Below, one piece after another: positions 9,801 through 61,377 of a stretch of 64,000 nucleotides of DNA. The position numbers were made by a program, and so were the translations under genes. Position 1 is the stretch's first letter, and every line of letters begins with the position of its first letter. The DNA comes from a virus. Location of the stretch: positions 28,843 to 92,842 of the IMG/VR virus record IMGVR_UViG_3300008262_000024; one strand, given 5' to 3'. The notes below the pieces were generated by a model. The model was given only the letters and a program-made list of their open reading frames with translations. It was not told the origin of the DNA and did no database searches.

Positions 9801-12800
9801 AAGGTATTTGATTTGCGTTCTTAGCTGCAGATTTAATATCACTTGTTAATTGTGATAAACCTTCAACACCAAATCCTAAATACTGATCTGTTAATAAGTT
9901 ATTTGTTATTTGTATAATTTTAATATACTCTTCATCAGTAATAACATTATTTCTAAGTTTTTCAATAGAACTAAATATTAACTTAAGAGGTTTGTATCTA
10001 GCAGCTATTAATTTTAGTTTGTTAGGTGAACCATCTTTATTAGTATCAGATACAAAATCTGCTGTTAATAATGCTTGAATAATTTCATTAATATCTTTAA
10101 CTCTATTAAGGTCTTCAAGTATTATTTGAAGTTCTGTTCTTAGGTCAAGAGCATTATTTAATTCTTGTTCAGCTTTAGCTACAGCTTGTTCTGCTTTTTG
10201 AAGATTTTCATTTAACTGTCTTTCTTCTTCTATTAAAGATTCTAGCTCTTTATTTATTTCATTTAAAATTGATCTTGTAAATTCATCAAACAAAATGTTA
10301 TCTTGTTCAGTTTTAAACTTACCATCTTGTTTATTAATTTCAAAATCTTCTTTTATTCTATATAATAAATCTAACTGTTGAGTTAAACTATCATATATAC
10401 TATTTAAATCTGTTATTTGATTATCAATTTCTTCAAGTAATCCTTCTAATCTTTTAATTTCAGCTTGAAGTTGCTTCTTTTCTTGTGCTTTACCATTATT
10501 AGCTCTACCAAATTCATTAGTGATTTCTTTAATCCAGTTTTGATAAATTTCTATTTCATTTTTAATCTGAACTCTTTTATTTACAGCATCTTGTAGCATA
10601 CCTTTATTTTCAGATAAACTTGTCCACAGTTTATCATATACTACTTCAAATGCTCTAAGCTTAGCAACTTTACTTCTTCTTATTCTTTCAAGTTTTCTTT
10701 TTAAAAAAGCTTCCTGCTTGTTTATAATTCTAACACCTTTATTCTTTTTTAAAAAGTCAATAGTAAATTCTCCTTTAACTTCTTTAGTGAAAGAATCTCT
10801 ATATAATCTTTTTAATTTACCAGTTGTAACATCTCTTTCAGAATATGCTTCATACTCTTTACCATTAAGTTCAAAGTAAAAAAATCTATCATCACCTTTA
10901 AACTTTTGAAGTTCTTCAGGAGAAAGTTTAGCTTTAACTTCAGGATCTAGAGTATGTTCTATATCCATCTTATAACCAGCATCAGCTAAATCTTTAGCAA
11001 ATTTATCTGTTACTTGTTTATCAGTAATTTCAGATTCTTGTTTTGAAATTTCTTTATTTGTTTTATCAGCTAAGTATTTATTATATTCTTCTTGAATAGC
11101 TTCTTTACTATATAAAGCTTTCTCATCTTCTAAAAGATCTTTAAGTTGTTCTTTATATTGTTTTTCTTTACCATAAAGAAGTTCTAGTTCTTTTTTATCT
11201 GATTCAGATAATTCAACAGGAGTTGTAGGATCTTCTTTATCTACAAGATTTTTAGATACAATATTAAATATTTGTTGATTTAAACTATTAGTAACTTTTT
11301 TAAGTTCTGAATTTAAAACTACTTTTTCTAACTTTTTATTTCTAATTAACTGACTAAATGCAGCTCTATCACTTTTACTACCACCTTGTAAAGTTGGCAT
11401 ATCAAACTCATGTCTATTATCAACACTGTCATAAAGTTCATAATACTCATCAACTCTTTGTAATAAATTTGACATTCTTTGAGCTTGTGTTGTAGAACCT
11501 GTTAAACCAAGTAACTCTTCAACATCTTGTTTTTCTAATTCACTTTTAGAAAGCTCACTTGTAATATGATTTTTTAAAATTTGAATACCTTCTTGACCTT
11601 GCTCAAAGAAAGGTTGAAAGTAATTGTAATCTAATATTGATTGAATTAAACTATAATCTTCTTTATCTCCTGATAATGCTGCTATATCAGCAAGCTTATT
11701 TAACATTATTTTATTTTCAGGTTGACTTAACAACTGCTGAAACTTTTCTTGATTTATTTTAGGAGTACCTTTTTCAATTATAATTTTACCATTATCATCT
11801 TTTTCAAATATATCAGCAACACCTTTCATTCTGTCAATTAAATTGTTTTTTAATTGAGCATGTAGTATACTGCCATATTTACTTTGATACCTATCATCTT
11901 TAATTTGACCTACTATTGACATACCTCCACCAAGAATACCACCTAATGCAATAGCTTTTCGCATATCAGTAGTACCTAAATTTTCAACATATGAGTCTAT
12001 AAGCCCACCTAATTTTTGATAATAGGTTTTATCTTGTTCATCTTCAGATAACATTGCTTGATCTTTAAAATACTCAGCACCTGAAAATTGTAAACCTTCT
12101 TCAAAAAAACCTTCTTTACCTAAACCAACAGCAGCTTTACCTAAATAACCTAAATATTTTTGTTTTAATGTTTTAGCACTAAAGTCTTGAAGAACTCCTT
12201 GTTCATTAAACATTTTACTAAGTGCTGATTTTCTAGAACCAAATGCACCAAATAATGCTCTTTGGTCCATTAAGTTAGGAACAAGTAATATTGCCATATT
12301 GAATTTAAAGACATCAGCTGCTACTCCACCTGCTTGTTCTCTTAAACCCATCATAGTGTTTTCATCTATTTGAGAAGCATCTTCTATATTATTAGCTTCC
12401 ATGTAATTAGAAACTACAGCATCTAAAGTATTATCAAAAGATTCTTTAGCTTCAGCAGAAGCTTCTAATGTAGCATTAACTGTAGCTGCTGTAAAATCAT
12501 TAAAGTTTCTAGCAGCTCTCATTCCTAACTTTTCAGCTTGAGCTGCATATCTTAATGCTCCAGTTTTAGTAAGACCTTTAGATAAACCTTTAACTGTTCT
12601 TAAATAAGCATTACCTGCATTATAAAGATTAACACCTCTTTGTCCTAATTTTAAAAGTTTAAGTGCATTACCTGGTACTAACATTGATGCTAAAAATCCT
12701 ATACCATCAGCACCTTCTGTAGCCCAAAATGAAGCTGAAAATAAGTTATCCAATAAACCACCTTTTTTAACTGATTCAGGAATATATACTTTTAATAATT

Positions 12801-18300: not shown

Positions 18301-21300
18301 CTTGATTTAACATTTGATCAGGATACATTGCAGGATTTTGAAAATTATTTATACTTGAATCTACTGATGGTGTTGTACTTGGCATACCTTGTGAAGGATT
18401 TACAAATCTAGAACCTATTCCTACTAATTGTCCAGCAGCATTTAATTCTTTAGAACCAAATTCAGAACCTAAAGTTCCTAACACTTGACCTGCACCACTA
18501 ACAATTTGTTGAGGATTACCACTTATTATACCAGAAGTTAAATTACCTGCACTAGATGCTATTTGACCTGTTTTATTTGCCCACTTATCAGCACCTCTTT
18601 GATATTCTTGACTATGTCCTAAATTTTTAGTAACTCCTTGTATAGCACCTTTACCCATTCCATATGCAGGACCTAAAAATATTGAACCTGCAACATCAGT
18701 TCCTAAACCTGCAACTCCTTCCATTACAGCAGCTGCATTTGCAAATCCTTTATTATTATAATTAAAATTAACAAAGTTATTACCACTTATTTGTTCAAAT
18801 GGACTAGCTATAAAGTTTAACCCTAATTTACCAATATCTTCTAATACACCACCTCTCTTATATTGCATTGGTACACCTGCATAGTACATATATGGATTCA
18901 TATAACCTCCTTGTGATTGTTGTTCAGGTTGAAGGTTTTGTTTCATTGTTGTTCCTATTACAACACCTGTTGTTCCTGCAAATCCTATTTTATTTAATGA
19001 TTTTCTTATTTTAGATATATCAAAATCATTTACACTTTGAACATATGGATGTTTTTGATTTATTAAATATTGTAATGCATTTTTAATATCTTCATCATCT
19101 TTTGGATAATATACTCTACTACCATCTTTATCATTAAGTATCATTCTTAATTCATTTTGAACAGCTTCAGCTTCATAATGAGCTGCATCATGATTTTTAT
19201 AAACATATGTACCATCTTGGTTTTTTAAACCTTTAGACCAAGCATCATCAAGTATTTTTCTTTCATGAACTGTAGGTAAAGTAGATAGATCTCTTAGAGT
19301 TCTACTATGAGCTGTTTCATGTATTCCAGTAAGATAAGTATCTTCAGGACTTAAATGTGGATCAATTACTATAATATCATCCTTATCCCCAATGTCTCTA
19401 ATACCATATTTACCTTGTGATATATTTCCAGATTTATCTTCTAAATAAAGTCTAGGATTATCTGCAACTTGTTTAAATGGATCTGGTTCTTTTGCATTTT
19501 CAAAATCTCTAAATCTATTAAACGGTTCAACAAGTTCAGGATCATTTGCAAATCTTGCTTTTTGATTACTTAAATTAAATTCATTATTAGTTCTAAATAA
19601 TGAAAGTTTTTTTCTATTATATGGGGATTGTGAAAATGTAGCAGCGTCTTCATTAGCTTGCCATAAAGCAAAATTTCTTTTATCTGCTAATGAAGGTTTT
19701 TGTAATGGATTAATAGGAATATTTGGATTTACTGAAAAATTATTTTTAAAATAGTTTCTATATCCTGTTTTAGCAGTATTTAATCCCATACCTAAACCAC
19801 CAATTACTCCTGGTGATCCTGATAAAAATAAACCTGTTTCTAAACCTCTAGCAAGTTTTTCATCCCAAGGTGCATTAGAACTATAATATCCACTATTTAT
19901 ATCTGATCCTAACATATTTGCACCAGAAATTCCTCCTGTTAATCCTAATATATTATTTCCAGTTAACCACGGTATAGTTCTTCCACCTACTACTGCAGGT
20001 AGTTGTAATGTTGAAGCTACTGCAGGAACAGTTTTAGATGCTATAGCTCCAGCAACTGGTGCAAATAATGCAGCTTCAATTGGACCCATTGTAGGTTCTG
20101 CTCTACCTGATGCTGGTGGTTGATAATTAGGATTTTGTATCCAACCAGTTTCTGAAGGAATAAATCTTGGTGCAGTTGGACCAACAATATCTGGATTATA
20201 TAAACCAGTATCTTCAATATATTCAAGTTCAGGAAGTGTTCTTTGTAACATTTCATCACCTGGCATCATGTAGTATTCATTATTTTCACTACCTACATAA
20301 TTTATCATTTTATTTTGTTTAGGATCCCAAAATTTTTTACGATATAATGTTACAGAATTATTTTTATTACCATCTTTATTATTACCACCTGTTGGTCCAC
20401 CACCATCATACATATATCCACCTGTAGCTTTTTGATTATTTTTAATCCAACCTTTTTCAGTATCTGCACCAGGATACATATCTTTATACATATTATATTG
20501 ATTCCAATCAATTGCTCTCCAACCTTGACCATCATCCATGTATAATTCAGGTGTTCCTCTATCTACACCATCTATAGTACCTTTCTTTAAACTTGGAGAC
20601 ATTTCTCTAAGTAATACTTTAGATGGAAATTTAAGTTGAATAGGACTTAATTTTAAAGGTTCTTCTTTAGATTCAAATCCTTTAAATGGTATAGATTGTA
20701 AGTTTGGTATTTCATCTAAAGTTGCTAATTTAATAGCAGGTTCATCCCAATAAGGAATAGGATATGTATATTGATCTGGATCATTTACAATTGATTCTGG
20801 ATAATATTCACCTCTTTTAAGATGCCAGTTTATATCATGTTCTTTATCAATACCATATGTTTCTACATCAGTAATTTGTTCTATCCAATGATTAGTTTCA
20901 TCTTTTCTATTTGTTATATATGTAGGATGATTTCTTCTATGAGTAACCATATCTAACAATTCTTCTTTTGTTAAATTTGGATAATATTTTTGTAATTCTA
21001 TAAGATTAGTATCATCTTCTATTTCTTTTGTAAAATTTTTTTTCCAAGGAGCTTTAGGTAAATATGTAGTAGCATATGCATTATCTAAAGGTTCAGCTTC
21101 CCAAGAAGTTTGATTATGATATTTTGAAGGTTTATATTTTTTAAATAAATTATTATAATTCCATGGATTATCTAAATCATCATAACGATACTGTGACCAA
21201 TTACTTGTTTCTCCATAATGATGTTCTGGTATTTCTGTAGTATAACTATAAGTTACTGGTGATCCATATGCACCTGTTATTGGATCTTCTGTTAAATTTG

Positions 21301-50695: not shown

Positions 50696-52201
50696 TTATA
50701 CTAGATTATAACGGAAATCTACTACTTTAGTTGGGTCAGTAATCATCATTCCACCCCACATCATTCTGTGGATTTCATATCCATCTGATCTAGATACAGC
50801 AAGTGATGGAGAACCTTTTCCTGCAGGAGTGAAAGGATCACGCATACCTGGGATATAACGGAATACTGAAGGTTGACCTTTTACAGATACTCTCTTGATA
50901 CCTGATTCACCACCAAAATCCATAGCAACAAATCTGCGAGATTCAGTAGTACCACCAAGTGGGTGAACTTCAGGGAACAATACTTTATCATCAAACATTG
51001 GACAGTACATTAATTCAAATGTAATACCATTGATTGAGTAGTATTTAGTAAACTGGAATCCTGCAGATAATGACTTAGGAATACCTGTAAGATGTTTAGC
51101 ACCTTCTTTGAATACAGTAGTATCCACAGAACGTCCAGGACCACCAGCACCGATTAGAAGTTCAGTACCACCTTTAGCAAGTACAGCTGCGTGGAAATCA
51201 CGAAGACCATATTCACCAGTACACAAAGTAACAACCCTGTTACCCATGTCAATTCTACCAATTGAAAGATCCAAGAATACTTCAGTTAAGAAGTCAAGAT
51301 CTAGAGTTGAGTAGTAATGAATGTTAGAAGGAGCAATTTGTTCAAACAAACCTGCACCTGATTCCAAAGGATATTTTCCTGAAGCATCTTTGTTCAAGAA
51401 AAGATCTTTGTCAGTGAAGTTATGTAGACCATAGAAGTGCATAACTACGTTAGCAACTTCTGCTTGGTACATAGCTACCATATCAAGATAGTTAATCCAA
51501 ACACGCTCTTGCTTACCATCTACACCTGGGAAAGTGAATTCCAAAGGATAGTTTTTACCTTCGTTAATCATGTTACCTGGAACTTCATATTCAAAACGCT
51601 GCATTGTAATGCGGTTTCTCATTCTGAAAGGTGAAGTAAAGTTAGGCTTCTGACCTCTGTTAGAAAGAGTTGAAGGAGCTACGTTGAAAAACTTAGCCCA
51701 ACGTGAACCAGCTTCAAGTTCTTCTGCAGGTACAGAAAGTGATGGATCTGAAGTAAGAAGTTCTACTTCATATTCAAAGTTAGTACCTTTAGGTTTAACA
51801 GAAAGAACTCTTAAAAGGTATTCTGCTTTGTTACCTTTAAGAATGTTATCTGGCTCAAAATACTCTTCACCATATACCATAAAGAAAGAAGCAATACCTG
51901 CACCTAGTTCACCTGCATCTGCAGCAGATGTACCATTAGCATCATAAGCTTCTAGCAAAGGAATATTTTTTTCATGTTGACCTTGGAGCATCCACTCATA
52001 GAAGTTATTTTCTTCAACTTCTACAGTAGGGAACTGATTGAGGAAATCAAACATCGCATTCTTCAAGTTAGTTCTGAAGATTTGATGAATGGTGTTAGTT
52101 ACAAGCTGAGGACGCTTCATATAGAGAGCACCCAAGTTATTTGCAGTCACAAGACCATTGTAGTCTTTGGCTGCGTATTTTTGTAGTTGAAATAATTGCA
52201 T
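50696..52201 (-). CDS. Major capsid protein
   Basis: 501 aa; YEWMLQG, SPFRMRNRIT, SGAGLFEQI and YIPGMRDPF motifs of the crAss-like MCP; highly expressed codon bias. Confidence 0.92.
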   Translation of the reverse strand: MQLFQLQKYAAKDYNGLVTANNLGALYMKRPQLVTNTIHQIFRTNLKNAMFDFLNQFPTVEVEENNFYEWMLQGQHEKNIPLLEAYDANGTSAADAGELGAGIASFFMVYGEEYFEPDNILKGNKAEYLLRVLSVKPKGTNFEYEVELLTSDPSLSVPAEELEAGSRWAKFFNVAPSTLSNRGQKPNFTSPFRMRNRITMQRFEYEVPGNMINEGKNYPLEFTFPGVDGKQERVWINYLDMVAMYQAEVANVVMHFYGLHNFTDKDLFLNKDASGKYPLESGAGLFEQIAPSNIHYYSTLDLDFLTEVFLDLSIGRIDMGNRVVTLCTGEYGLRDFHAAVLAKGGTELLIGAGGPGRSVDTTVFKEGAKHLTGIPKSLSAGFQFTKYYSINGITFELMYCPMFDDKVLFPEVHPLGGTTESRRFVAMDFGGESGIKRVSVKGQPSVFRYIPGMRDPFTPAGKGSPSLAVSRSDGYEIHRMMWGGMMITDPTKVVDFRYNLV

Positions 52202-53464: not shown

Positions 53465-55999
53465 TTATTTTTTATCATATTTATTCTTATTTTCTTTTGC
53501 AACTTTTAATGCAGTTTCAGATTTCATTTTTTCAATCTCTTTCTTAGCTTCTATTTCTTTCTCTTTTAAAGAGATTTTTTCTTTCTCAATTTGAACTTTT
53601 CTTTGCTCAAGTTGATCCTTCATTCTAATTTCTTTTTCTTTCTGAATTTGCTGATAAGTTGCTTTTTGTTGTTCTAATGCAAGTTTACTTTGTTCTAATA
53701 CATCAGGAACCATATTCTGATTAACATCTTGATCTTGAGCATAACTCATAGCTCTAATAGTTTCCAATTGAATCTTGTTTTCTCTATCTAATTGTCTATT
53801 AATATCTTCTCTATTAAGTTTCTCCATTTCAAGTTGTAGTTCTTGAGCTTTAAGTTCAACTGCTTGAGCTGCCATTCTCTCTTGAGATTCTTGTTGCATT
53901 TGCTGCATTTGTTGTTGCTCTTGAGTAATCTTATCTTGAGCTTCTTCTAAATATCTAGCAAGTGCAGATATACTATCTTTCTTGTAAATCTCAATAAGAT
54001 CTCTAAACTTAATCTGACCAGTCTGCATACCTGCATGTGCAAGTTGATTAAGTGCTTGCATAAGTTCTTGTGTGTTTGGTCCATCATCTATATGAATATC
54101 ATATTCTGATTCTGAAAACTCATCATAATAACTTACAATTTCAGCACCCATATCATCTAATACAAACTGTGCTTTATGTGGATTTTGTTTCCATACATAT
54201 TTAGCAACTTCTAATAATCTTTGCATACAATCTCTTTTAAATGAGTTATGTAATGCAAAATACTTTTCAGTCATTGAGTTAGATGCTGTCCATCCCATAT
54301 TAGATGTACCTACATTAGCATCACCTTTAACATCACCTTGTCTGTATTCATTAACACCTGAAATCAAATCAAGTTGTTGTTTAACAAATGATAGTAACTG
54401 TACATGCTGATTAATATAGTTACCCATTTCAAGATTAATACCTGTTGCAGCTAACTGATTGTATGTACCTGCTGATTTACCTTGAAGTGGTCCTTTAAGT
54501 ACTTCATTAGTAGGATCCATAAACATTACATTGGTGGCTTCAGCATACTGTAACCATTTGAGAGGATCCCACTCTGAAGGAATCATGCTGGTATTAATTG
54601 CCAACATTGGACCTTTATACTTAGATATAGCTAGGTTTAATCTATGGAAGAATATATCATACAAATAATCCATAGGTTTCATAACATCCATGAATGACAT
54701 TACTCTTGAATTATTAGTATTACAATATACACCTACATAAGGTGGTTTACTTTCAGACAAGTTACTCATGCTTCTTGACTGATAAGGAATAGGTCTAATC
54801 TTTACATAAATATCATTAGCAATTTTAGTACCTTCCCACCATTCATTAATCCATAGCCAATCTACAGTTTCACCTGCATCTTTATCAATCTTGTAATATT
54901 CATCTACAATCTTTTCTTGTGGACTACCATACTCATCATAATAACTTACTTTACCAATCTTTCTTCTAGATCTCCAACAAACTCTCATTACCCTAACATT
55001 ACCTCTTTGGTCATAAGCACCACCAAAATAATGTGTAGCAATTTGGTTAGGTACAAACAACTCTCCTGCTGTATATCCAAATCTTTCTTCAACAGTAATA
55101 TCTCTGTTGTAAGCCATTTGAATACCACCAGTTCTCATTGCATTGTACTCTTTACTTTGTTCAAGATTTGAAATTTGTTCTTTAGTTAGTTCTAAATGAA
55201 ACATATCCACAACTTGACCTACAGACATCATTGTATATTCTACAATCCAGTCTGCATCTTCAATTTTATAAGTTTCAGGTGATTGAATAGTAAATAGATA
55301 TAAAGGGTTTACTTTTCTAAATACAATATCATTTCCAAGTTCTTCAATACATACAATTTCCTCACCTGATATTAAAAAATCTTCCCAACTTCTTAAGAAA
55401 ACATCAGCAACTTTTAACCTTTTATACTCATATTTAAGTATTTTGTTAGCTGTTATTTCTTTAAGATCTTGAAAGTTATATTTTAAATATTTATCAAACT
55501 TACTTAACTCTTTCTGCATTTCTTCTTCCATTACTTGAGGATCAACTTCTTGACCTTGAAATGCAGCTTGCATTTTAGCTTGTGCTATTGATACCAGTTT
55601 CTGATACCATTGATCTCTAATTGCTTCTTCTTTAGAAGAAATACCCATTTGATCTGCTGATGATATATAAGCTTTAAAAGGATATCTTGTTAATCTTTTA
55701 GCTTCTTCACCAACAAGGGTGTTTATTTTTGAATTACCTAAACCTATATGTTGAATACTTTTGGGAAATGATGAAAACTCAATACCATATGGTTCACATA
55801 TAGCTTGAATATCTTTATCTGTTAACATATTGTTTCTCAATCTGTAGTTAACCTTCTTATTATAAAAGGTTTGTCTAGTAACAGATGAGTCAAACATTAA
55901 TACATTTTCCCCAGCATCTATACATTTTTTAGCCCACTCTAAATTCTTTTGTGAATCTGATAGAGCTTGTTGTGGTACTTGTATTACTAAATTATTCAT
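53465..55999 (-). CDS. Portal protein
   Basis: 844 aa; KINTLVGEE, WINEWWEG and LDLISGV..RQG motifs; C-terminal Gln-rich coiled coil; directly follows TerL. Confidence 0.92.
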   Translation of the reverse strand: MNNLVIQVPQQALSDSQKNLEWAKKCIDAGENVLMFDSSVTRQTFYNKKVNYRLRNNMLTDKDIQAICEPYGIEFSSFPKSIQHIGLGNSKINTLVGEEAKRLTRYPFKAYISSADQMGISSKEEAIRDQWYQKLVSIAQAKMQAAFQGQEVDPQVMEEEMQKELSKFDKYLKYNFQDLKEITANKILKYEYKRLKVADVFLRSWEDFLISGEEIVCIEELGNDIVFRKVNPLYLFTIQSPETYKIEDADWIVEYTMMSVGQVVDMFHLELTKEQISNLEQSKEYNAMRTGGIQMAYNRDITVEERFGYTAGELFVPNQIATHYFGGAYDQRGNVRVMRVCWRSRRKIGKVSYYDEYGSPQEKIVDEYYKIDKDAGETVDWLWINEWWEGTKIANDIYVKIRPIPYQSRSMSNLSESKPPYVGVYCNTNNSRVMSFMDVMKPMDYLYDIFFHRLNLAISKYKGPMLAINTSMIPSEWDPLKWLQYAEATNVMFMDPTNEVLKGPLQGKSAGTYNQLAATGINLEMGNYINQHVQLLSFVKQQLDLISGVNEYRQGDVKGDANVGTSNMGWTASNSMTEKYFALHNSFKRDCMQRLLEVAKYVWKQNPHKAQFVLDDMGAEIVSYYDEFSESEYDIHIDDGPNTQELMQALNQLAHAGMQTGQIKFRDLIEIYKKDSISALARYLEEAQDKITQEQQQMQQMQQESQERMAAQAVELKAQELQLEMEKLNREDINRQLDRENKIQLETIRAMSYAQDQDVNQNMVPDVLEQSKLALEQQKATYQQIQKEKEIRMKDQLEQRKVQIEKEKISLKEKEIEAKKEIEKMKSETALKVAKENKNKYDKK

Positions 56000-56014: not shown

Positions 56015-58057
56015 TTATCTACCAAACATATTGTTAAAAAACAGTCCATTATCTTTATAGCTGTTAAACTCTTCTAAAGGGTCATAACTGTCTTTTAGAA
56101 ATCCTTTTTCTTTGAAGAAATCAGACTCCAGAAAACTTTTAGCTTTTTTAGAATCAGCCTTTATAATTTCCTTATTCAAAGTTACATCTAAAATCAATAC
56201 GGCAATCATGGCTGAAACCCTATCAAAGTTTCCATCTTTATTCCACTTAATTAACTCCTGTATTAAGCCAGTAGACCTTAATCTATTAACATTTAACACT
56301 TCAGAATTAGCCTCTATTGGTTCTAATAACCATTCTCTAATCAATTCTCTACCCCATGTATTTGTTCTTTCAGTAGCCTTATACCCATAACTTGTATTTA
56401 AATTTGGTTTCCACTCAATTTTATCTCTAAGTTGTACAGGAGTTTCAGATAACATATGCAAAGACTTCTTATGCTCCATATATGTAACAAAACCTAACTT
56501 GTTAATCTCTGGAAATCCTAATGCATTGTAGTAAATAATTAATTTTCTACAAGTTTCATAGAAATCTTTAGCTAATTGTGGTCTACCTGTGTATTCAGCT
56601 ACAACTCTTCTTGTAAACCTGTCAAATACAAATGCACATCCTACAGAATCTGTAGTTGCATGATCATCATCATAGGGGTCAATACCAACAATATACCTTC
56701 TTGGAAAAACTTTACCATCATTATCCTTTTGAGGCTGTTCATAAATCTCTACACACCCTACAATATTATCATCAGGTCTTCTTTTAATAGGATAATCTCT
56801 TAATGGCTGTGCATTATCAAAAGTTTGGAACCTTAATTCACCTTCTTCTGACATTACAAAGCTACCAATCCAGTTACTTTCTACATACTTCTGTACATTA
56901 ACCTTAATATCAGCTAATCTTTCATTCAATAACATAGTAGGAAACATATTTCCTGATGTTACTAAGAATGCTTCTGATGGTGTTAATGGATATTGTGTAA
57001 CTGCATCTCTATATGCTTGAGGATTACCCTTTTTAGTTTCTCTATAAGCTAATATAGATTTCATTGCAGCATTCTCATTAGAATTACCATCATCATCTAC
57101 TAGCTTTTCAGTAATTTTAGTTTCTTTATCAGTATATATACCAAATCTCTGTCTAGTTGATGGTAAAAACCACCCACAAGTTTGATTACCTTTATCAGCT
57201 TCCCATTCATTAGGAAATGCAAGTAGGTTAAATCTTTCAGGATCATAGTACATTTCAGAGAATGCAGCAGTACCTCCACCCATGTCACCACCTGTACCAT
57301 ATATCACAGGTAAACCTATCATATCATCACCATCTTTCCAGCATGGTTCAGAGATATTATAAGACTCTATAATATTACTAAATATACCAGCTTCCTCAAA
57401 CAGGAATATAGAGCTAGATAAACCAGCAGATGCAAATGGATTATCCTTAAATGTAATCTTTTTAATTTCAGACTGATAACCTACCCATACATCTCTACCA
57501 TCTTCCATCTTTTTAAGATGTCTTGCTTTGACAAAATCTTGTGTATTAGGATTTCTAGGTTTATACCATACAGTAGCTTGATCTAGAAAGTTTAAGTTAT
57601 TAAGAGTCATTGCCATAGTATTATCAGAATACTTATTTTCATAAGCTGAGATAATACATTTAGCATTCTTATAGAAGTTATACTCATGTGTAACCAATGC
57701 TGCATTCTTATATGAAAAACCAGTTCTTCGTGGTTTAACCATTATAAACCCTTTCTTTTCCTGTCTAGCTCTTTCTATTAAAGAAAAGAACTCTAAATCC
57801 ACATCTGTAAACCTTGGAAACCCTTCAGTCTTTCTACCTGTCTTTTCATCCTTTAAAAGCATTCTTGTATAATTCAAATAGAAGTAATAAGTACCTGGTA
57901 TTGTGGTATTTCCAATAGTAACACCTTCAATACACCTTCTTTTCTCTTCTTTCCAAAACTCATTATATTGATAAGTTCCAGGTAATGCTTTTGTATAATT
58001 ACCTGTATTTTCAAACACAAGTCTTGCTTCTAAAAATGCTTTTGTATTAGTTAACAT
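56015..58057 (-). CDS. terL: Terminase large subunit
   Basis: KPRRTGFS (Walker A), FLFEEAG (Walker B), YGTGG, and nuclease motifs IVGIDPY and NFDRVSA. Confidence 0.95.
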   Translation of the reverse strand: MLTNTKAFLEARLVFENTGNYTKALPGTYQYNEFWKEEKRRCIEGVTIGNTTIPGTYYFYLNYTRMLLKDEKTGRKTEGFPRFTDVDLEFFSLIERARQEKKGFIMVKPRRTGFSYKNAALVTHEYNFYKNAKCIISAYENKYSDNTMAMTLNNLNFLDQATVWYKPRNPNTQDFVKARHLKKMEDGRDVWVGYQSEIKKITFKDNPFASAGLSSSIFLFEEAGIFSNIIESYNISEPCWKDGDDMIGLPVIYGTGGDMGGGTAAFSEMYYDPERFNLLAFPNEWEADKGNQTCGWFLPSTRQRFGIYTDKETKITEKLVDDDGNSNENAAMKSILAYRETKKGNPQAYRDAVTQYPLTPSEAFLVTSGNMFPTMLLNERLADIKVNVQKYVESNWIGSFVMSEEGELRFQTFDNAQPLRDYPIKRRPDDNIVGCVEIYEQPQKDNDGKVFPRRYIVGIDPYDDDHATTDSVGCAFVFDRFTRRVVAEYTGRPQLAKDFYETCRKLIIYYNALGFPEINKLGFVTYMEHKKSLHMLSETPVQLRDKIEWKPNLNTSYGYKATERTNTWGRELIREWLLEPIEANSEVLNVNRLRSTGLIQELIKWNKDGNFDRVSAMIAVLILDVTLNKEIIKADSKKAKSFLESDFFKEKGFLKDSYDPLEEFNSYKDNGLFFNNMFGR

Positions 58058-58578
58058 TACTCGTTAAATTCACTATTTACTTGTTTATCACCTCTAATCT
58101 TAACAGCAGTATCTTGTTTTTCAGCCTTAACTGCAGCCTCTAAACTCTTATACTGTGATACAACCTTACTCATAGAATCAATAATCTTTAAACTAGCTGC
58201 AGTACTATCTGCATCTATTTCACTTTCATCAAGAAACCTAGAAAATTCAAATATCTTATTCTTAACACTATTAAGTAAAACCTCTAAAGGACTCTGTTTT
58301 AACCTTTTATATATTTCGCAGGCTTGTTTAACCTTGTCTGATGGTTCATAGTCCTTTTGTCCGAGTACTTCTTCCTTAATGGCTTCTGTTCTTTTTTCTT
58401 CTGAATAGTTGTTATAAGGAGAATTGAAATCACATAAATGATAGATAAACTTAAAATCTGTATATGCATTAATTTTTGTTTTAGATTTATCTTCTTTCCA
58501 TATCTCACTAAATATATCTATAGTGAGTATCTCAGGTGAGATAACTACCTCATTATCTTTTAAGTCAAATACTTTCAT
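58057..58578 (-). CDS. Putative terminase small subunit
   Basis: Helical 173 aa protein coupled to TerL; DKSKTK..FIY...D..SPY and C-terminal IRG as in crAss-like TerL-upstream proteins. Confidence 0.55.
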   Translation of the reverse strand: MKVFDLKDNEVVISPEILTIDIFSEIWKEDKSKTKINAYTDFKFIYHLCDFNSPYNNYSEEKRTEAIKEEVLGQKDYEPSDKVKQACEIYKRLKQSPLEVLLNSVKNKIFEFSRFLDESEIDADSTAASLKIIDSMSKVVSQYKSLEAAVKAEKQDTAVKIRGDKQVNSEFNE

Positions 58579-58973
58579 TACTTAAGAAACTTCAACTTAT
58601 AGATAGTAGAGTATGTAAGACTAGCTAATTCATCAATTTGATTCTTAAGGTAATCTTCCTTAAACACTTCTCTTGATGCCTCAACATACTTAGCAAACTC
58701 TTGAATATATTCCATAAAATCCAATGGCTTAACAGACTTAATTTCAAAGTTTACAATACCATATTTACCTTGATAACTTTCTACAAAGCCATCTGCTAAA
58801 TCAAGTAGTCCATCATAAAATCCACCAATAGCTGTGTGTGCTGCATAAGCACCTGGACCTTTTACTCTAAGATGTTCAATATGTGCAACATCTCTTGCTT
58901 CAAACAATCTACCAATAAACTTACTTGGTGAGTTCATTGGATTGCTCATTAATTTTTCTTTTAAAGAGTTCAT
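58578..58973 (-). CDS. Ferritin/Dps-like four-helix protein (DUF5856-like)
   Basis: HIEH..YAAHTAIGGFYDGL.DL.D.FVESYQG..NQIDE..YKLKFL pattern. Confidence 0.78.
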   Translation of the reverse strand: MNSLKEKLMSNPMNSPSKFIGRLFEARDVAHIEHLRVKGPGAYAAHTAIGGFYDGLLDLADGFVESYQGKYGIVNFEIKSVKPLDFMEYIQEFAKYVEASREVFKEDYLKNQIDELASLTYSTIYKLKFLK

Positions 58974-60186: not shown

Positions 60187-60389
60187 TGTTTACCATTAAT
60201 ATAACTTACAATTAAATCTCTTTCTTGAGGAGTTAAATCTTTCATCAACTTATCTTGACCTATCTCTCTGACAATAGATTGTAGCTGATAGAAGTTAATC
60301 TTACCTTGAGCAAGGTATATATTCAATTGTTGTTTAATAGTATTAGTATTCATTTGCTGCTGTAGGTTACCTTCCAATGTTATATTCAT
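60183..60389 (-). CDS. Hypothetical protein
   Basis: ATGA-coupled ORF. Confidence 0.55.
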   Translation of the reverse strand: MNITLEGNLQQQMNTNTIKQQLNIYLAQGKINFYQLQSIVREIGQDKLMKDLTPQERDLIVSYINGKQ

Positions 60390-60679
60390 AACAACACTTT
60401 ACATGCAACATCAGCTTCTCTAAACAGCTGATACTTTTGTTTACCTCCATCATGAGTTTTACCTTCAAAACTTGTAGGCATTGAATGTGGAAAAAACATT
60501 ACTCTATCTCCTACTTTGTAAAGCTCAACTTGGCTTCCTACTGCAACAACAACATCACCATTATATTCTTCTACATCAGAAGTTTGTGTACCATTAGGTA
60601 AGTATACTCCAGTAGATGTTTGTTCTAGTTCTTTGTACTCAATTAAAATACCTTTAGGGTGTGGTTCATACATAATCAT
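60386..60679 (-). CDS. groES: GroES-like co-chaperonin
   Basis: P..KGILIE, TSTGVYLP mobile loop, VVAVG, KVGDRVMF and FREADV. Confidence 0.82.
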   Translation of the reverse strand: MIMYEPHPKGILIEYKELEQTSTGVYLPNGTQTSDVEEYNGDVVVAVGSQVELYKVGDRVMFFPHSMPTSFEGKTHDGGKQKYQLFREADVACKVLL

Positions 60680-60697: not shown

Positions 60698-60729
60698 CAA
60701 AAGTAAAGTTATAGTTTGACTTTAACAAA
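60698..60729 (-). promoter_or_regulatory. Bacteroidota sigma-A promoter TTTG-N20-TACTTTTG driving the late operon
   Basis: -7 element at 60698-60705 and -33 TTTG at 60726-60729, with canonical spacing. Confidence 0.75.
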
Positions 60730-60761
60730 TAAAAAGTAAAGTTATAACTTAACTAACTGTT

Positions 60762-61010
60762 GCTGAGTAGATATAATTTTCCCCTGAGAGTTTTAAACTT
60801 AATTTTGGATTTCCTGCAGTTGGTTTTTAGCCCCTAGTCTACTCTTCCCCTTACACGCTGGTGGTAGCCCTGCAATTATACCAAAACCTTTTTTGCAACT
60901 ATCGGAGAAAGTTATCTTCCTATTTAGAAGATTCTGATCCAACTTCTAACCCACTTTTACTTATGGGTGATCCAGAGGTTAAGAGGGTAAGACCTTAACT
61001 TGGGTTGCAG
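60762..61010 (-). ncRNA. Candidate structured ncRNA / leader RNA
   Basis: GC-enriched, ORF-free segment with multiple complementary helices, beginning just downstream of TATATTTG (61013-61020). Confidence 0.55.
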
Positions 61011-61012
61011 TG

Positions 61013-61020
61013 CAAATATA
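61013..61020 (-). promoter_or_regulatory. Bacteroidota -7 element TATATTTG
   Basis: Consensus match preceded by an extremely AT-rich tract, at the strand-switch point. Confidence 0.65.
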
Positions 61021-61140
61021 TAAAAAATTTTTTTTAAAAAAATAAAATGTTTTGTGTTTATGTAAGTGGGTACCTACTCAACAAAACCACCCCTCCTAAT
61101 CTTTAGGGCGACGTTGCCCCACACTAAAACCTCTAGAAAA

Positions 61141-61377
61141 ATGAGCAAGCTCACAAATTTATTAAAAAGCAATCTTGAAAGTAGTGCAGAACAACTAGTT
61201 GACATTACTAAGGATAACGTTGCTAGTGTAATCTTGAAGGATAAAATCTTCGCAATTCTTTGCGAGAACTTTGATGTTGAACCAACATTTACCGAGATTA
61301 CAACAAGTAAGGGTAAAACCCTTATTGTTGTTAGCAATTCAACAGTTCAGGAATTGAAGAAAGCGTTGCTTTCTTAA
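61141..61377 (+). CDS. First early-region hypothetical protein; start probably the ATG at 61141
   Basis: A-rich leader before MSKLTNLLK; followed by a strong terminator. Confidence 0.6.
   Translation: MSKLTNLLKSNLESSAEQLVDITKDNVASVILKDKIFAILCENFDVEPTFTEITTSKGKTLIVVSNSTVQELKKALLS

Follow-up and report, generated by a model that had tools for sequence, protein, structure and literature searches.

Comparative sequence evidence for a conserved structured non-coding RNA gene beside the terminase genes of crAss-like phages

The stretch of DNA analyzed here, referred to as the window, is the final 64 kb of a 92.8-kb IMG/VR viral contig. Within it, a 460-nt gap separates two divergent genes: a small plus-strand gene that starts at 61141 and, on the far side of the gap, a GroES-like (Cpn10) gene on the minus strand (60386-60679; Pfam PF00166, E 2.2e-6; PHROG 3188, co-chaperonin GroES). 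The gap holds a minus-strand RNA gene of about 250 nt at 60757-61009. The GroES-like gene is the first of a co-directional minus-strand block of about 60 kb, in which it is followed by small ORFs, the gene for the large terminase subunit (TerL; 56015-58057), the portal gene (53465-55999), the major head protein gene (50696-52201) and the genes of several giant proteins. The TerL, portal and major head protein genes were assigned with PHROGs 6681, 6547 and 11589, respectively. The RNA lies 2.8 kb upstream of TerL on the same strand, and with the GroES-like gene, the small ORFs, TerL, portal and major head protein all downstream, it heads the packaging and structural block of this phage, as the initial annotation had proposed. 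The pre-terminase operon also contains a gene for a DUF5856 protein (58578-58973, minus strand), relatives of which occur in 6 of the 11 RNA-bearing genomes and are missing from all 6 RNA-free reference phages. The TerL of the window is approximately 32% identical to Crassvirales TerL, and genome comparison revealed crAss hallmark genes common to the window genome and reference crAss-like phages. Based on this TerL likeness and the hallmark genes, the source is a distant, uncultured crAss-like phage.

The RNA segment is GC-rich, with a GC fraction of 0.405 against approximately 0.27-0.30 in the flanks, in agreement with the first description of the locus. The lack of an ORF held up as well: in relatives, stops or frameshifts interrupt the two small ORFs that the segment contains, and the variable columns of the RNA alignment are distributed over the three codon positions as 21, 20 and 20, with no codon periodicity. 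The broken ORFs and this even variation rule out a protein-coding reading of the region.

Upstream of the RNA, at 61013-61020 on the minus strand, lies a putative promoter box, TATATTTG, of the form TAnnTTTG, which we take to be the Bacteroidota-type -7 promoter element. It is preceded by an A/T-rich tract, and the first helix of the RNA, P1, begins 4 nt downstream of it. All close relatives have the box, as TATATTTG, TATCTTTG or TACCTTTG, and in most other clades the RNA is immediately preceded by a TAnnTTTG box; a predicted start directly behind a host-type putative promoter box is thereby a feature that the window copy has in common with its family. Upstream of the RNA promoter (61040-61120), about 65 nt (GATTAGGAGGGG..ACATAAACACAAAACA on the minus strand) are kept in relatives despite a differing neighbor gene; a sequence-variable GC hairpin precedes them. 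This block may serve the RNA promoter as an activator or UP site, or it may belong to the divergent plus-strand gene as its 5' UTR. On the other side of the RNA, a second TAnnTTTG box, TACTTTTG (60698-60705, minus strand), is found 19 nt upstream of the ATG of the GroES-like gene and is conserved among relatives as TACTTTTG or TACATTTG. It is probably the late block's own promoter, and its conservation before the ATG bears out the earlier suggestion that the gene next to the RNA would have a promoter of its own. Between the RNA and the GroES-like gene there is also a tandem direct repeat, TATAACTTTACTTTT (60699-60744), in two copies 31 nt apart, the second of which contains the TACTTTTG box.

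The RNA is composed of domain 1, an A-rich linker, domain 2 and a 3' tail, all on the minus strand. Domain 1 (60894-61009) is a four-way junction, defined by covariance model R1 and by covariation. It is closed by P1 (UGCAAC/GUUGCA, 61009-61004 with 60899-60894), which is followed without a linker by P2 (GUUAAG/CUUAAC, 61003-60972). The three nucleotides of J2/3 (60971-60969) lead to P3 (ACCCA/UGGGU, 60968-60949), and the invariant UAGAA of J3/4 (60948-60944) leads to P4 (GUUGGA/UCCGAU, 60943-60938 with 60906-60901), which encloses an internal loop and the P5 hairpin (AUCUUC/GAAGAU, 60932-60914). The invariant strand UUUCUCCGAU and then a single A (J4/1, A60900) lead back to P1. The 3' strand of P4 with its flanks, UUUCUCCGAUA (60910-60900), is invariant in 60 of 60 aligned members and, together with AGAAGUYGGAU (60947-60937), constitutes the family signature; both elements are present in the window copy, which scores 104.7 bits with R1 and 89.5 bits with R2.

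R1 was built from 11 near-identical sequences, and 60 loci were aligned by fitting them to this model. In the resulting alignment 96.5% of the cells are paired, compared with 65.9% in shuffles and 29-47% with slid partners. The covariation score of domain 1 is 0.547 against 0.130 in shuffles, with none of 500 shuffles as high. P1, P2, P3 and P5 show 4-6 pair types each, and every pair has changed on both sides across clades, while P4 is invariant except for a U/C that remains paired with G. When the close family and a second clade were aligned independently with MAFFT, the same helices were obtained. The closing helix P1 and the hairpins P2, P3 and P5 had all been predicted from the window sequence, and covariation now supports each of them. 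A further helix predicted at the same time, UCUGGAUC/GAUCAGA, has to be given up: relatives do not preserve it, and it would compete for strands with P4, which is invariant, as well as with the base of P2.

Domain 2 (60801-60888) follows the A-rich linker. Its outer helix, P6 (UUUUGG/CCAAAA, 60888-60881 with 60808-60801), is separated from P7 (UGCAG/CUGCA, 60874-60870 with 60819-60815) by an internal loop in which UAUAA (60880-60876) lies opposite GAAAU (60813-60809), presumably an instance of the UAA/GAN pattern. P6 and P7 both covary in the close family, and the second domain predicted earlier, closed by UUUUGG..UUGCAG with CUGCAG..CCAAAA, is therefore retained. The two helices enclose a core of conserved purine-rich strands (60853-60843 and 60838-60820). 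The short helix P8 (60867-60864 with 60842-60839) is invariant in the close family, extends to 8 bp in L042 and shows covariation in the GACAC clade. The architecture of domain 2 is the same in L042 and in the GACAC clade, with the sides of the internal loop swapped in the latter. Based on this swap, the loop is read as a structural module of UAA/GAN type, and a role as a pseudoknot partner was rejected. The window copy shows the domain 2 features of the family, namely the long-range helices P6 and P7, the loop of UAA/GAN type and, ahead of the 3' side of P7, a ..UAAAAAC strand.

The 3' tail contains a motif (60769-60784) that consists of a G-run, 3-5 nt and YUAUAUCU, and it is recognizable in most of the 29 clade representatives. 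In the window, it is joined by a clade-specific 3' extension, CUACUCAGCAACA (60757-60770), which is complementary to the 3' strand of P1 and to GAGUAGA (60844-60838), a segment that overlaps the 3' strand of P8. The extension occurs in the main group of the close family and has diverged in a sub-clade (L008, L030, L033, L035, L064 and L077); its covariation is weak and not beyond that of shuffles. Conservation stops between 60769 and 60757, at the putative 3' end of the RNA. A pseudoknot or alternative fold had been suggested from the complementarity of the tail to the internal UAUAAUU and GAGUAGA. Tail complementarities are indeed present in the window sequence, but across the alignment the pairing does not stand out, with 92.1% of cells paired versus 91.5% in column shuffles and a covariation of 0.086 versus 0.076. 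The duplexes predicted between the tail and the remainder of the RNA were no better in energy than those of shuffled tails, and their partners were inconsistent.

The initial annotation had described the segment as a highly paired RNA of about 250 nt. Covariation identifies it as a structured RNA, but its folding energy is unexceptional: the minimum free energy of the 251-nt stretch is -56.6 kcal/mol, compared with -56.5 kcal/mol in dinucleotide shuffles (z = -0.03). Since folding energy alone does no better than chance, the reality of the RNA rests on comparative evidence. The gap that holds it shows 76-93% nucleotide identity in 14 viral loci, the GroES-like proteins of which are 69-93% identical. 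Compensatory changes keep the same fold in about 35 close relatives and in at least 29 divergent clades (60 loci tested), and in the homologs collected P1, P2, P3, P5, P6 and P7 covary. Sequence comparison in this way confirms a real, conserved, non-coding structured RNA gene. In addition, about 25 nucleotides in junctions and formally unpaired strands are invariant. Many invariant unpaired nucleotides together with a UAA/GAN-type loop are characteristic of RNAs that adopt a tertiary fold or bind a partner, which suggests one or the other here.

To describe the extent of the family, search patterns drawn from its invariant strands were run on viral and metagenome contigs. Signature patterns recovered about 35 close copies and several divergent ones, and a relaxed pattern matched at least 116 stretches in the viral collection; the true members constitute at least 29 clades at 75% identity. 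R1 detected exactly one full-length copy per locus in 60 of 60 loci. R2 detected one copy in the window genome and in each of 10 other large contigs of different clades, and two in an eleventh contig; counted by genome, the RNA is single in 10 of 11. In the two-copy contig (G006:C1, 90.6 kb), domain 1 is found at 11266-11391 and at 19622-19742 on the minus strand, 8 kb apart. Among cellular genomes, with one genome for each of 185,579 prokaryote species, the strict signature pattern gave only two chance matches, in GC-rich coding DNA. Neither the intergenic region of the window nor the L093 RNA had a blastn match among 50,697 deposited phages. R2 found no copy in nine reference crAss-like or Flavobacterium phages (cr1_1, ProJPt-Bp1, crAss001, phi14:2, FPSV-S29, Fpv2, Carjivirus communis, crAss002 and DAC15), a search that distant copies could escape.

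Some family members lie in settings of their own. An array of about 20 tRNA genes (L136 5787-10303, minus strand) is located directly upstream of the L136 copy on the same strand, and a tmRNA gene (L088 13232-13514, plus strand; Rfam RF00023, 54.6 bits), accompanied by a tRNA gene, is located 3 kb downstream of the L088 copy. L050 and L076 carry divergent members (RNA at L076 7889-8190) in elements with an excisionase-like HTH gene, together with a serine recombinase in the L050 element and a TnpB-like transposase in L076 (9615-11054, PHROG 506). Their promoters are sigma-70-like and not of the Bacteroidota type, and SD-like sites are present. The setting of L050 and L076 suggests that the family may reach beyond crAss-like phages.

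Across the large contigs, the position of the RNA relative to TerL is well conserved. TerL could be placed in ten genomes, and in nine of them the RNA lies 2.2-6.1 kb away from it; the tenth fits this synteny too if its contig is circular. Six of the nine genomes have the RNA on the TerL strand and upstream of the gene, and in the other three it is divergent from TerL. The genome with two copies is among the six, and its second copy is 14.5 kb away. In the window, the RNA begins at a putative transcription start, no terminator-like site was found after it, and the 60-kb co-directional block follows. Such an arrangement would suit a cis-acting leader of the late or packaging operon, which could operate by put-like processive antitermination or as a riboswitch-like sensor that gates read-through or translation. 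The same-strand position upstream of TerL in 6 of 10 genomes agrees with a leader, as does a same-strand ORF that starts within about 100 nt of the RNA end in approximately 18 of 29 clades, and only 10-25 nt past the tail in L050 and L076. We nevertheless consider a leader rather unlikely. In the populous GACAC clades (G002, G003, G004 and relatives), the RNA is divergent from TerL and transcribed away from it behind its own TAnnTTTG box, ends in a hairpin and faces a convergent gene, so that there is nothing downstream to regulate. A same-strand operon behind the RNA, which a put-type element would always be expected to have, is found in the window but missing in these clades. Furthermore, the downstream genes are unrelated between clades, the GroES-like gene has the conserved promoter box of its own described above, and an alternative terminator/antiterminator pairing is unsupported, the tail pairings not exceeding shuffles.

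In the close relatives L022, L033, L035 and L064, the RNA and the GroES-like gene are separated by other, inserted genes, each with its own promoter box. These insertions, the arrangement in the GACAC clades and the second box before the GroES-like gene all point to an independent RNA gene. The same follows from the occurrence of the RNA upstream of TerL on the same strand in some genomes, and divergent with a convergent gene next to it in others, which argues that it is not simply a leader. We thus read it as an independent gene that is often, though not always, at the head of an operon. The initial annotation had considered a standalone RNA, and this is probably correct, given that copies in related clades are equipped with their own promoter box, are followed by a hairpin and a convergent gene, and point away from the terminase operon.

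The location at the point of gene divergence in the window, which coincides with the minimum of the cumulative GC skew, could be taken to indicate an origin of replication. An origin-associated or primer transcript, comparable to ColE1 RNA II or to the R-loops at T4 oriF/oriG, would have its G-run and A/T-rich tail seed a hybrid at a strand-switch origin, and the tail does have a conserved G-run followed by A/T-rich sequence. However, GC skew is confounded with gene orientation, the RNA of the GACAC clades lies away from the main strand switch, and a primer would not be expected to contain so elaborate and invariant a four-way junction. We regard this explanation as very improbable.

Our preferred reading, held with moderate confidence, is that of an independent structured non-coding RNA gene of about 250 nt, representing an uncatalogued family of crAss-like phages, which acts in trans as an RNP RNA or catalyst in a late or packaging task. 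It builds on the RNA-level fold and its conservation, the non-coding character, the promoter boxes with their putative promoter-proximal start, the copy number (single in 10 of 11 genomes), the apparent restriction to phage contigs and the place beside TerL (9 of 10 genomes), as well as on the stable-RNA neighborhoods of the L136 and L088 copies. From these features we infer action in trans, as an RNP component or a catalytic RNA, with a link to late or packaging functions. Host RNA polymerase would start the RNA at the TAnnTTTG promoter. The transcript would fold into a tRNA-shaped four-way junction with invariant junction strands and P4, then into a second domain closed by two long-range helices around the purine-rich core, with a short conserved tail after it. 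The folded RNA would work in trans, either within an RNP or by catalysis, on a task tied to late or packaging gene function, and would not be confined to a cis effect on the operon that follows. Read-through late transcripts of the window phage may, in addition, have it at their 5' end.

Potential protein partners were sought by all-against-all comparison, in which no family was present in all 11 RNA-bearing genomes and absent from the 6 RNA-free ones. The best candidates were a multi-copy domain found in 8 of the 11 and the DUF5856 protein found in 6 of the 11. Pfam and PHROGs searches of the genes neighboring the RNA provided nothing useful on a partner. At all GACAC-clade loci, a gene of about 90 aa without a known family (L093 6798-7091, minus strand, and relatives) immediately precedes the RNA on the same strand. 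It was rejected as a partner, being confined to these clades.

A ribozyme, either self-cleaving or acting on phage transcripts or tRNA precursors, would account for the way in which invariant nucleotides cluster in one short helix and in the connecting strands of the multi-helix junction. A Pistol ribozyme (RF02679) was identified at L111 6884-6947 on the plus strand (52 bits against a gathering score of 34.5), about 0.9 kb from the RNA and on the opposite strand, and the tRNA array that adjoins the L136 copy is compatible with such an activity as well. The AGAA-plus-P4 strand seems to resemble loosely the J2/4-P4 region of RNase P RNA, the UAAGGG..GAA strand likewise appears RNase P-like, and AGAA and the UAUAU tail are presumably similar to parts of the hairpin ribozyme. 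On the other hand, no Rfam 15 ribozyme or RNase P model matched the RNA in 23 loci at E up to 5-10, P4 is local here, which gives a topology unlike RNase P, and ARAGORN found no tRNA gene in the window. We therefore consider a ribozyme improbable. The resemblances to RNase P and to the hairpin ribozyme were set aside, as the respective Rfam models did not match and the topology differs.

More far-reaching than the trans-acting RNA that we favor, and proposed here with low confidence, is a new class of large functional RNA, a ribozyme or RNP core, that one entire branch of the crAss-like phages would need for late expression or packaging. If true, it would account for the retention of the RNA next to the terminase operon, whichever way it points. 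Both in the gut and in environmental settings, crAss-like phages belong to the most abundant phages of Bacteroidota, and to our knowledge almost nothing is known about their non-coding RNAs. An RNA of 250-350 nt with a covarying fold, about 25 invariant nucleotides and a TerL-adjacent place across at least 29 clades has a profile like that of the forerunners of new ribozymes, riboswitches and RNP RNAs. Such an RNA gives transcript mapping, structure probing, cryo-EM and pull-downs a defined target, and a role in late transcription or packaging, if it has one, would make it a phage regulator of a new kind.

To place the RNA among known RNAs, it was compared with Rfam 15 (4227 models), which includes riboswitches, self-cleaving ribozymes, RNase P, tmRNA, 6S, pRNA, GOLLD and ROOL. 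No family reached its gathering score in the window, which upholds the suggested novelty as far as Rfam is concerned, and at the same score the RNA was unmatched in 12 other loci. A permissive search (E up to 5-10) produced only unrelated matches and left the RNA unmatched in the window and in 22 other loci. In the literature, we found no description of a crAss-like or Crassvirales non-coding RNA of this kind.

The topology of domain 1 is that of a tRNA cloverleaf, with linkers of 0, 3, 5 and 1 nt; J3/4, with its 5 nt, corresponds to the variable loop, and P4 abuts P1 as the T arm abuts the acceptor stem. However, domain 1 has no T-loop or D-loop signature, and P1 has no free 3' end since domain 2 follows. 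ARAGORN did not call the RNA, and the Rfam tRNA and tmRNA models matched neighboring genes in other loci and never the RNA itself. The stable RNAs of T4, species 1 and 2 (rnaC and rnaD), are likewise small phage RNAs of orphan function located beside tRNA genes, and one member of the present family, L136, similarly follows a tRNA array. T4 rnaC and rnaD are 120-140 nt long and processed from a tRNA transcript, whereas the crAss-like RNA usually has its own promoter box, and we know of no sequence relation between them. The put RNA of HK022 and the late leader of lambda (6S RNA with Q antitermination) are also promoter-proximal RNA elements at the head of a very long phage operon. In contrast, put consists of two simple stem-loops of about 70 nt and acts strictly in cis, whereas the crAss-like RNA has at least 250 nt and, in several clades, no downstream operon.

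Like the phi29 pRNA (RF00044), the crAss-like RNA is a phage-encoded, two-domain structured RNA, and it adjoins packaging genes, being 2-6 kb from TerL in 9 of 10 genomes. A packaging RNA of the pRNA type, or a stand-in for the small terminase, acting with TerL and portal, would fit this architecture and position. The TerL synteny may, however, mark a module boundary only, and no copy was found in the nine reference phages, which have a homologous TerL. phi29-type phages use a dedicated pRNA-dependent ATPase, whereas the RNA-bearing phages have ordinary, classical TerL and portal genes. Neither a match to the Rfam pRNA model nor a conserved complementary loop pair for an intermolecular ring was found in the crAss-like RNA. 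A role of this type is highly unlikely in our opinion.

We conclude that the RNA family is new to the catalogs, and that its nearest analogs are GOLLD (RF01998) and ROOL (RF03087), which are alike in kind and not in sequence or fold. These RNAs are also borne by phages or prophages, have ornate multi-helix structures with many conserved unpaired nucleotides, are often located near tRNA genes, are independent of any one neighboring protein gene and have an orphan function. They differ in length, approximately 600-800 nt compared with 250-350 nt, and share no sequence or structure match with the crAss-like RNA. The latter is distinguished from both by its four-way junction with a second domain, its occurrence in crAss-like phages of Bacteroidota and its fixed place beside TerL.
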